In this document: piece by piece, positions 12,629 through 16,724 of the stretch | Numbering within the stretch: position 1 is the first letter of the stretch | How the letters are laid out: every line of letters starts with the position of its first letter | NCBI RefSeq assembly: GCF_003334305.1 | Contig: NZ_QOWS01000004.1 | Direction: 5' to 3' (one strand) | Length of the DNA: 64,000 bases | Origin: Escherichia coli | GTDB taxonomy: Bacteria > Pseudomonadota > Gammaproteobacteria > Enterobacterales > Enterobacteriaceae | Translations under genes and position numbers: made by a program | Notes under the pieces: model-generated | What the model was told of the DNA's origin: nothing | What the model saw: the letters and a program-made list of their open reading frames with translations, nothing else | The model's database searches: none

Positions 12629-13062
12629 TGTTGCACTCCTGAAAATTCGCGTTAGCCACGCTCACTCTGGACTGCGACATAGCCAGGAAATCAGAGGTGA
12701 CGTAGGGTGTTTTTTGCCGTTTTTATAGGTCGTTCGCCGAATACGGCGCGTGTTTATATCTGGCAATAGCAGTATAAAAAGCGCGCCATAGCGGCTCACC
12801 GTGCAACAACACAACATTAATGCGTTCAATGAGGCCCGATTTTGGCATTAGCCCTGGACGGTGGAATCCACTTCACGGAAATGAAAACAAGAACAAGAAA
12901 GGAAGGGTTAAAACGAAGAAATAAAGAAGAGTATGAAATGGATCGCTTGACTCCAGGCAAACGCCAGTAAAAATCCGCGCTATGAAGCAGTTTTTACTGG
13001 CATTTGCCTGAAAATATTCGATTCAGCACCGCTAAAACGACATTTACCGCTCGCTGAACATA

Positions 13063-13512
13063 TCAGGACAACAGCGTGCCCCACTGTTCGACCCACGGAT
13101 TTGATTCCGTTTCCGGTTCCGGGTTCTCACTGGCGTCAATCAACAGCATTTCGCCAACCCGCTGAGCGCTCTGTTCCTGCAACAAGGCATCGAACTGTTT
13201 GCCGCCATTGCAGAAATTTACATAACTGCTGTCACCGAGCGCAATCACGCCATAACGCAGATTCGGCTGGAAGCCCAGACTATCTTTGATTCCCTGAAAG
13301 AGCGGCACAATGCTATCAGGAAGGTCGCCCTGCCCGGTCGTGGACGTAACCACCAGAACATACTTATCCTGATAGGGCAGCCAGTCGCTTAATTCAGGAT
13401 CTTCAAATACCGTTGCTTTGTGGCCCTGTGCGGTCAGAATTGCTTCTGCTTCTTCCGCCACTAACAGCGAATTTCCGTACATGGTGCCGACAAAAATACC
13501 AATTTCCGCCAT
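13063..13512 (-). CDS. yqcA: Short-chain flavodoxin YqcA
   Basis: 149-aa [44 protein letters not shown]... with a flavodoxin-like FMN-binding N-terminus. Confidence 0.9.
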
Positions 13513-13529
13513 ACCGTTTTCTCCCTGGA

Positions 13530-14312
13530 TTAGGAACTTATCTCTCCATCCTGACCCGATGGCGCACTGAACTCAACCCTTTCATTTTCAGGAAGCAGAC
13601 CGCGCCAGCCAAATTGTGATAACGCCTGCATCCAGGTGTCGTCCAGGCCCGCGTGAATAGTCAGCGGCTCGCCAGTAAAAGGATGCGTCAATGACAACTG
13701 ACTGGCATGTAGCATTAACCGCTGGAGGCCAAAATGCTCAGCACCGCTGCGATTCTGGCGTAAATCGCCATGTTTGCTATCGCCAATAATCGGATGACGC
13801 AAATGGGCAAGATGTCGGCGAAGCTGATGTTTGCGTCCGGTTTTCGGCTCCAGTTCCACCAGGCCGTAGCGCGTGGTCGGGTAACGTCCGGTCGCTACCG
13901 GCATTTCTACGGTCGCCAGACCGCGATAATGCGTCACTGCTGGCTGCGAGCCTTTATCTTCGCGGGCAAATTTATCAGCGATTTTGTCCAGTTCTTCCAC
14001 CAGTGGATAATCCAGAACTGCTTCTTCCATCAACCAGCCGCGCACAATCGCATGGTAACGTTTCTGGATTTGGTGCTGTTCAAACTGTTGTGCCAGCAGC
14101 CGTCCGGCCTCGCTGGATAATCCCATCAACAACACACCAGAAGTGGGTCGGTCCAGACGATGAGCGGTAAAAACGTGCTGGCCAATCTGATCACGCACGG
14201 TTTGCATGACCACTACTTTCTCGTCGCGATCCAGCCAGCTGCGGTGAACCAGCCAGCCGGAGGGTTTATTTACCGCAACCAGCCATTCATCCTGATAGAG
14301 TATTTCCAGCAT
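13530..14312 (-). CDS. truC: tRNA pseudouridine(65) synthase TruC
   Basis: 260-aa [28 protein letters not shown]... with the RluA-family catalytic motif [12 protein letters not shown]. Confidence 0.93.
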
Positions 14313-14641
14313 TAGCTCGCATCATCCGCAAAAAGAGCATCCAGTTTTTCCAGCTCAGCCAGAATAAGCGCGCGTTGCGGATGGTCCGTCGCCAGCGCCA
14401 TTTCATAATAGGGTGCAACGGCAAAAGCGCCCGGTAACGGCTGTTTGTTATCTAACAAATCGTGCATTCGCGGGATCAGCACCCACTGCAACCACTCCAG
14501 TGGTTCCATGGTGTCCATAAAGAACGGTTGGGTACTATTAAATTGATGCGGCTGGGGTTCATCGTTTCGCCAGTGCTGATGTTCACGCAGTAACGCTTCA
14601 AGCGCCTGCAACTGGAGACGAACGCGGTCATGAGTGGTCAT
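14312..14641 (-). CDS. yqcC: Conserved protein YqcC (DUF446), function unknown
   Basis: 109-aa ORF MTTHDRVRLQLQALEALLREHQHWRNDEPQ...; stop overlaps truC start (ATGA), suggesting translational coupling. Confidence 0.88.
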   Translation of the reverse strand: MTTHDRVRLQLQALEALLREHQHWRNDEPQPHQFNSTQPFFMDTMEPLEWLQWVLIPRMHDLLDNKQPLPGAFAVAPYYEMALATDHPQRALILAELEKLDALFADDAS

Positions 14642-14683: not shown

Positions 14684-15052
14684 AATAAAAAAAGGGAGCA
14701 CTGTATTCACAGCGCTCCCGGTTCGTTTCGCAGCATTCCAGCTACTTTTGTTGCTCCCTGCTCATCCTTGACAACTTTTCCTCTGGCCTTGCGGCCAATC
14801 GTTCATCCTGAACTATTGCTTCCTGCTCACACCACCCCGATGTGATACTTCATCCTGAAGTGTCCCTGGCCTTCCTGACCCACCGAATCATCCTGACCGG
14901 TTCTCATTCTCCATCCTGGAGGTGTCCTTTAACGCGTCCTGCGTCATCCTCTTCGCTTCATCCAGAAGCCTTTCCCTGAAACACCATCCTGGTGTGTCCT
15001 GCAGAAGTGTCATCATCCTGATGTTCACTTCGTTGTCTGACTCCCTGTCGAC
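14684..15052 (-). ncRNA. csrB: CsrB small RNA (CsrA-sequestering sRNA)
   Basis: No long ORF. The plus strand carries at least 8 exact CATCCTG heptamers (CAGGATG on the minus strand) plus about 10 further TCCTG/GGA variants spaced ~15-25 nt apart. Minus-strand 5' end GTCGACAGGGAGTCAGACAACGAAG; 3' end is a GC hairpin (gggagcactgtattcacagcgctccc) followed by a U-run. Confidence 0.93.
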
Positions 15053-15875: not shown

Positions 15876-16724
15876 ATGTCTTCTTATGCAAACCATCAGG
15901 CACTTGCGGGCCTGACTCTTGGAAAATCAACCGATTACCGGGATACCTATGACGCCAGCCTACTGCAAGGCGTTCCACGCAGCCTGAATCGCGACCCGCT
16001 GGGTCTGAAAGCGGATAACCTGCCTTTTCACGGTACGGATATCTGGACGCTGTATGAACTTTCCTGGCTGAATGCGAAAGGTTTGCCGCAGGTCGCTGTC
16101 GGTCATGTTGAACTTGATTACACCAGCGTAAATCTGATTGAGTCGAAGAGTTTTAAGCTCTATCTCAACAGTTTTAACCAGACGCGTTTTAATAACTGGG
16201 ATGAGGTGCGCCAGACGCTGGAGCGCGACTTAAGCACTTGCGCCCAGGGTAAGGTTAGCGTGGCGTTATATCGTCTTGATGAACTGGAAGGCCAGCCGAT
16301 AGGTCATTTCAATGGCACCTGCATTGATGACCAGGATATCACTATCGATAACTATGAATTCACTACTGACTATCTGGAGAATGCCACCAGCGGTGAAAAA
16401 GTAGTGGAAGAGACGCTTGTCAGCCACCTGCTGAAATCAAACTGCCTGATCACCCATCAACCAGATTGGGGTTCGATCCAAATTCAGTATCGTGGACGCC
16501 AAATTGACAGAGAAAAACTGCTGCGTTACCTGGTCTCATTCCGTCATCACAACGAGTTCCACGAACAGTGCGTGGAACGCATCTTTAATGACCTGTTACG
16601 CTTCTGCCAGCCAGAGAAATTAAGCGTTTACGCACGTTATACCCGTCGTGGCGGTCTGGACATTAACCCGTGGCGCAGTAATAGCGATTTTGTCCCATCG
16701 ACCACAAGACTGGTTCGGCAATAA
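15876..16724 (+). CDS. queF: NADPH-dependent 7-cyano-7-deazaguanine (preQ0) reductase QueF
   Basis: 282-aa [38 protein letters not shown]... containing the QueF motif E(S/L)K(S/A)FKLYL ([12 protein letters not shown]). Confidence 0.94.

Follow-up and report, generated by a model that had tools for sequence, protein, structure and literature searches.

The yqcC–truC–yqcA cluster of Escherichia coli: a conserved yqcC–truC pair and a flavodoxin gene of restricted distribution

TruC isomerises U65 to pseudouridine (Psi) in a few tRNAs, a reaction that proceeds without a cofactor, and in Escherichia coli its gene is flanked by those of YqcC, a small protein of the DUF446 family, and YqcA, a short-chain flavodoxin. 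Both neighbours are E. coli proteins with solved structures but no known function, and the locus raises the question of which of the three gene products, if any, work together. A first-pass annotation of this DNA had proposed that the linkage reflects an unrecognised shared role, for example a redox-dependent tRNA modification step. Here, the cluster was analysed in a window of 64,000 nucleotides from E. coli (the whole stretch of DNA, contig NZ_QOWS01000004.1) and compared with DUF446 loci from other genomes and from metagenomes.

Gene identities and boundaries of the cluster

Positions 13063-14641 of the window carry three co-oriented genes on the minus strand, a strand left unstated in the first-pass annotation, in the order yqcC, truC and yqcA, with the following features.

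14652-14649, minus strand: ribosome-binding site of yqcC, GAGG
14641..14312, minus strand: yqcC, 109 aa; match to Pfam PF04287 (DUF446) with an E value of 1.5e-34 over residues 7-103
14314-14310, minus strand: yqcC/truC junction TAATG, in which the stop and start codons share one base
14312..13530, minus strand: truC, 260 aa; NCBIfam equivalog NF008321, 499.3 bits against a cutoff of 328
13513-13529, minus strand: truC–yqcA spacer of 17 nt, with a GGAG-type ribosome-binding site
13512..13063, minus strand: yqcA, 149 aa; NCBIfam equivalog NF005989, 258.6 bits against a cutoff of 160

The tightly packed trio described in the first-pass annotation was borne out by these profile matches, by the RefSeq annotation, which gives the same three genes at the locus, and by identity to E. 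coli K-12, where gene content, order, relative strand and spacing of the cluster (b2792–b2790) are unchanged. YqcC and YqcA match the products of K-12 b2792 and b2790 exactly, and TruC shares 259 of 260 residues with that of b2791, the sole change being S122 in place of P122 in K-12. There is no substantive difference from K-12; the window, taken from a different strain of the species, matches several RefSeq genomes at 100% identity, and the cluster was found in all complete E. coli genomes (5426/5426).

The YqcC sequence is identical to that of an NMR structure (PDB 2HGK) and describes an acidic helical-bundle protein (pI 4.9) with the conserved DUF446 motif PF..D....WLQ(W/F)..(I/L)PR, in which P39, F40 and W50 showed no variation among 60 diverse homologues. 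The TruC match spans residues 1-256 of the 257-position NF008321 model and includes the RluA-family catalytic motif HRLDRPTSG, which is invariant across a 28-sequence alignment. Formation of Psi65 by this TruC is predicted from the literature on the 259/260-identical E. coli gene. That literature is not uniform: deletion of truC (VC_0888) in Vibrio cholerae abolishes Psi65 (PMC12588516), whereas a 2026 bisulfite-based map found Psi at tRNA position 65 still present after deletion of truC in E. coli and suggested that TruB acts redundantly (PMC13062092), a residual signal that conflicts with the clean loss in V. cholerae. YqcA is a short-chain flavodoxin (PF00258), classed as 'Short' elsewhere (PMC7084853), its 149 aa leaving out the insertion of roughly 20 residues found in long-chain members. 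Its closest paralogue is MioC, which was also its second-best family (NF006531, 115 bits). It has the sequence of the YqcA NMR structures in apo and holo form (PDB 2M6R/2M6S), and by this identity it binds FMN; its function was stated as unknown in the same study (PMC4122359).

The three genes were considered a single operon, being co-oriented with junctions of -1 nt and 17 nt and with no internal promoter or terminator seen; a consensus scan of the minus strand gave neither element within 13063-14641, nor a sigma-70-like promoter for yqcC. The 17-bp gap before yqcA had been read correctly in the first-pass annotation, but its 'ATGA overlap' between yqcC and truC is in fact TAATG, a 1-nt overlap, which would imply translational coupling of the two genes. 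Two further elements delimit the cluster.

14684..15043, minus strand: csrB sRNA gene (RF00018, 380 bits), with an intrinsic terminator at 14719-14694
12951-13013, minus strand: 27-bp near-perfect hairpin (-40.3 kcal/mol, z = -8.6 versus shuffles), 50 nt past the yqcA stop codon

The flanks comprise gudP downstream of yqcA and csrB, syd and queF upstream of yqcC. csrB, whose terminator-bearing end lies only 42 nt upstream of the yqcC ATG, marks the cluster's upstream limit. In Salmonella, Yersinia, Pectobacterium and Pantoea, too, yqcC has csrB as its immediate upstream neighbour. An AppY ChIP-seq peak that was assigned to yqcC (K-12 position 2924287; 4.8-fold by RNA-seq, PMC10057817) falls inside K-12 csrB (2924156-2924524). 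Together with the lack of a yqcC promoter in the consensus scan, this position suggests that the cluster promoter probably lies within csrB, or that csrB may supply transcription by read-through of its terminator. At the other end, the hairpin contains no U-tract and is therefore not a canonical intrinsic terminator; it is possibly the 3' end or a stabiliser of the transcript, or else a repeat element between yqcA and gudP.

Conservation of the yqcC–truC pair

Three samplings of DUF446 loci were compared: the best 80 matches in species-representative genomes, which with the E. coli reference locus made 81 loci; 12 look-ups of representatives from diverse DUF446 clusters, most of which shared less than 50% identity with each other; and a metagenome scan seeded with the DUF446 family consensus to reach other lineages, which returned 80 loci. 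The best 80 genome matches were all from Enterobacterales. In 79 of these 81 genome loci truC directly follows yqcC, and nearly all contain the block queF–syd–yqcC–truC–yqcA; since the whole block is syntenic, conservation within this order says little about function. One Serratia locus has neither truC nor yqcA. Similarly, among the 64 of 80 metagenome loci with enough downstream sequence, truC lay downstream of the DUF446 gene in 25, most of which carried syd (20/25) and a flavodoxin gene (23/25), indicating that these loci are enterobacterial.

The diverse look-ups were more informative about distance. In 6 of the 12 lineages a TruC orthologue is encoded immediately downstream of DUF446, and the five of these neighbours that were scored against NF008321 all passed (388-445 bits, cutoff 328). 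In V. orientalis and V. penaeicida, yqcC–truC is preceded by a divergent DUF3549 gene and followed by DUF3461 and glnD. As in E. coli, the DUF446 gene of the Vibrio pair, which in V. cholerae consists of yqcC (VC0887, PMC6606805) and truC (VC_0888, PMC12588516), lies directly upstream of that for the TruC orthologue, its stop codon overlapping the start codon of the latter; the pair differs in having no flavodoxin gene, syd, csrB or queF nearby. A Vibrio-type context was also seen at locus L096, where the pair is flanked by DUF3549 and by glnD/map. Other loci had other flanks: at the non-enteric locus L181, queF (524-1372) is directly divergent upstream and dctM follows, with neither syd nor csrB; at L087, syd precedes the pair and rlmD–relA follow; and at the non-enteric contig L082, DUF446 and TruC are joined by an in-frame read-through and followed by a YqcA-type flavodoxin gene, with dapD and glnD adjoining. 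The gene-neighbourhood comparison proposed with the first-pass annotation thus extends the yqcC–truC pairing beyond close relatives, to Vibrio and to non-enteric contigs with different flanks.

The junction itself is also conserved. In 100 of 101 loci where it could be measured, the yqcC stop and truC start overlapped or were at most 8 nt apart (-1 nt in 72, -4 nt in 14, -7 or -8 nt in 3, and +1 to +8 nt in 11). The 4-nt ATGA overlap attributed to the present locus in the first-pass annotation is the form of Enterobacter-type relatives (14/101), and gene calls in the Vibrio loci and L181 gave overlaps of 7-17 nt. No other evidence speaks as strongly as this conserved coupling despite changed neighbours for joint production, and probably joint action, of YqcC and TruC.

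Four candidate YqcC–TruC fusion proteins came up. Three of them (P0130, P0145 and P0155) were rejected as probable products of frameshifts in reads of enterobacterial origin, and that at L082 (P0226), although in frame, was left unconfirmed because it lies on a contig of very low coverage with another truC frameshift.

From the gene identities, packing and conservation pattern described above, we infer that TruC has a dedicated partner in YqcC and that YqcA is a co-transcribed electron carrier acting outside Psi65 formation, a reading that we hold as a whole with moderate confidence. Expression data point the same way: yqcC and truC both belong to a ribosomal-protein co-expression community of E. 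coli in which yqcA is not listed (PMC3285575). yqcC–truC–yqcA would form one transcription unit, in which YqcC would be translated from the same mRNA as TruC, the overlapping stop and start codons causing the two proteins to be made together. TruC would carry out the cofactor-free isomerisation of U to Psi at position 65, and YqcC, probably its partner, could be for example a stabilising, a specificity or targeting, or a regulatory subunit. YqcA, an FMN electron carrier, would be co-transcribed in Enterobacterales and have a redox partner outside pseudouridine formation.

The alternative that survives best is that the genes have no mechanistic link at all, but are neighbours by inherited synteny and shared growth-rate-dependent expression, with YqcC and YqcA serving unrelated processes. 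It accords with the uninformative synteny of queF–syd–csrB–yqcC–truC–yqcA as a whole in Enterobacterales and with the many alternative neighbours of DUF446 (see below). It also accords with Erwinia endophytica (L064 5995-6928), a natural truC deletion at the locus: some 20 codons are left of truC, and the intact yqcC (110 aa) and yqcA (149 aa) stand 151 nt from each other. A linker-fused YqcC–TruC AlphaFold2 model showed no confident docking (pTM 0.61, pLDDT 75.5, from a shallow MSA with 28 paired sequences and with no PAE), and among the structural relatives of YqcC, whose fold is a generic helical bundle, none was informative. What speaks against the absence of any link is that the overlapping yqcC–truC pair survives every other change of neighbours (Vibrio, L096, L181, L087 and L082) and that truC-linked loci occur in 5 of 11 DUF446 sequence clusters (distance cut 0.55, roughly 45% identity). 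Inertia alone hardly explains a pairing of such persistence, and we consider this alternative rather unlikely.

A dedicated partnership of YqcC with TruC would resemble, if YqcC binds TruC, that of the archaeal and eukaryotic pseudouridine synthase Cbf5 with its small accessory proteins Nop10, Gar1 and L7Ae. Our literature search returned no functional study of DUF446. Deletion of yqcC in V. cholerae caused no growth phenotype (PMC6606805), a point against the partnership. The comparative data provide the testable prediction that YqcC works with TruC. Should YqcC modulate TruC, bacterial stand-alone pseudouridine synthases would not all be single-protein enzymes, and the inconsistent Psi65 phenotypes of truC mutants might be explained in part.

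DUF446 genes away from truC

The other 6 of the 12 diverse look-ups had no truC nearby; the DUF446 gene lay beside an EF-G gene in three, ampD in two and xerD in one. The remaining metagenome loci carried DUF446 with a stand-alone EF-G gene, dinG, xerD or mtfA, or with no recurrent neighbour. Because about half of the diverse lineages have no truC nearby, a location next to truC is not a strict requirement for YqcC, whose action may be more general. This distribution and the retention of yqcC without truC at the E. endophytica locus both weigh against a YqcC that serves TruC only.

The pairing with EF-G was observed in 27 loci from uncultured gammaproteobacterial MAGs (for instance, L089 3613-6345 and L090 3614-6354, and among the 25 others L099, L108, L113, L116, L117, L132, L139 and L158), in which the DUF446 gene is divergent from, and 200-340 bp away from, a full-length EF-G gene (TIGR00484, 976 bits). 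The EF-G gene in question is a stand-alone one outside the str operon context, and its outer neighbours vary. We therefore weighed the possibility that YqcC has a general role in translation, binding tRNA or the ribosome, and is encoded beside truC in some lineages and beside an extra copy of the EF-G gene in others. The constancy of the EF-G pairing among varying neighbours agrees with such a role, as do the co-expression of yqcC with ribosomal-protein genes noted above and the up-regulation of yqcC together with growth-related genes in urinary tract infection. However, the EF-G-linked DUF446 proteins form one single sequence cluster, so the pairing may have had a single origin, and it is divergent rather than operonic. 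In addition, the acidity of YqcC argues against direct binding to RNA, and ampD, xerD, dinG and mtfA are not translation genes. A general translation factor is accordingly an improbable identity for YqcC, and partnership with TruC remains the reading that we prefer.

ampD is a second recurrent association of DUF446, unrelated to tRNA. A gene of this type (Amidase_2) directly precedes DUF446 in two distant lineages (L094 4412-5324, from Orbus hercynius, and L180 3436-4312), where the pair sits downstream of pilin and type II secretion-like genes, and in one protein of 283 aa (P0176) AmpD and DUF446 are fused. Another long protein, P0233 (527 aa), belongs to a high-GC organism; DUF446 forms its N-terminal domain (residues 8-109), and the roughly 400 residues after it have no assigned domain. 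DUF3549 (PF12069) adjoins DUF446 in Vibrio and at further non-enteric loci, whether or not truC is there too (L178 2881-3918, L096 3846-4913 and L091 7106-8140), at the position that syd occupies in Enterobacterales; the idea that DUF3549 is a relative of Syd was dropped, since BLASTP showed no similarity.

The flavodoxin gene and its link to truC

An association of YqcC or YqcA with TruC has been on record as an observation: the cluster is annotated in every E. coli genome, Pfam describes PF04287 as 'tRNA pseudouridine synthase C', InterPro notes that some TruC proteins begin with a DUF446 domain (as quoted in PMC4569619), and in Shewanella (S. oneidensis) YqcA is annotated as TruC-associated (PMC7084853). 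The linkage was therefore not 'unrecognised', as had been thought in the first-pass annotation. What our comparison adds is the difference between its halves, the yqcC–truC half being broad and translationally coupled and the flavodoxin half lineage-restricted.

A yqcA gene follows truC almost only in Enterobacterales, where the gap is -1 to 56 nt in nearly all cases, and in addition on the single non-enteric contig L082, whose flavodoxin passes the YqcA-type equivalog (187 bits, cutoff 160). L082 was also the only one of six diverse non-redundant truC-linked DUF446 lineages with a flavodoxin gene beside truC (1/6). In Photorhabdus and Proteus, yqcA is displaced from truC by 1.8-3.5 kb; no yqcA was found at the syd-linked L087, and Vibrio, L096 and L181 likewise keep yqcC–truC without a flavodoxin gene. 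Searches for homologues of YqcC and of YqcA gave hits almost exclusively from Enterobacterales, with no informative fusions among them. Judged by this distribution, YqcA is a mostly enterobacterial, lineage-restricted addition to the pair, and of the conserved linkage proposed earlier, the yqcC–truC part holds in Enterobacterales, Vibrio and other non-enteric lineages, whereas the flavodoxin part holds weakly. The tight truC–yqcA spacing, the trio at L082 and the name given to the Shewanella protein may leave room for a real YqcA link.

Such a link would be closest in a three-protein, redox-dependent tRNA modification, in which YqcA gives electrons and YqcC bridges to TruC or to another enzyme on the same tRNAs. 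The close packing of the trio in most Enterobacterales, with gaps of -1 to about 30 nt, its presence at L082 and the S. oneidensis annotation are in line with this scheme, as is queF, another tRNA modification gene, located 1.2 kb upstream. To our knowledge, however, pseudouridine synthases need no redox cofactor. The pair exists without a flavodoxin gene in the four settings named above, yqcA has moved away from truC in Photorhabdus and Proteus and stands outside the translation co-expression community that holds yqcC and truC, and our literature search found no paper tying TruC to a flavodoxin. A parallel exists in the E. coli oriC region, where the flavodoxin gene mioC is located beside the tRNA modification gene mnmG. 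Like yqcA by truC, a paralogous short-chain flavodoxin gene there adjoins a tRNA modification gene, which could be taken in favour of the redox scheme; but the reaction of the flavoenzyme MnmG is redox-dependent, whereas isomerisation by TruC is cofactor-free, so the analogy offers no mechanism here. With nothing found in support of the redox-dependent step suggested in the first-pass annotation, we regard this scheme as highly improbable, and the data argue against effort on a flavodoxin redox role in Psi65 formation. Least probable of all is that TruC strictly requires YqcC as a protein cofactor, a kind of dependence for which no bacterial stand-alone pseudouridine synthase would offer an earlier example, and that in Enterobacterales and Shewanella the pair recruited YqcA, coupling Psi65 or another modification of the same tRNAs (e.g. 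tRNA-Asp) to the redox state of the cell.

As a separate observation, queF (15876-16724), a tRNA modification gene of the queuosine pathway, is situated near yqcC–truC in Enterobacterales in general, and tRNA-Asp is a substrate of both the queuosine and the TruC pathways.
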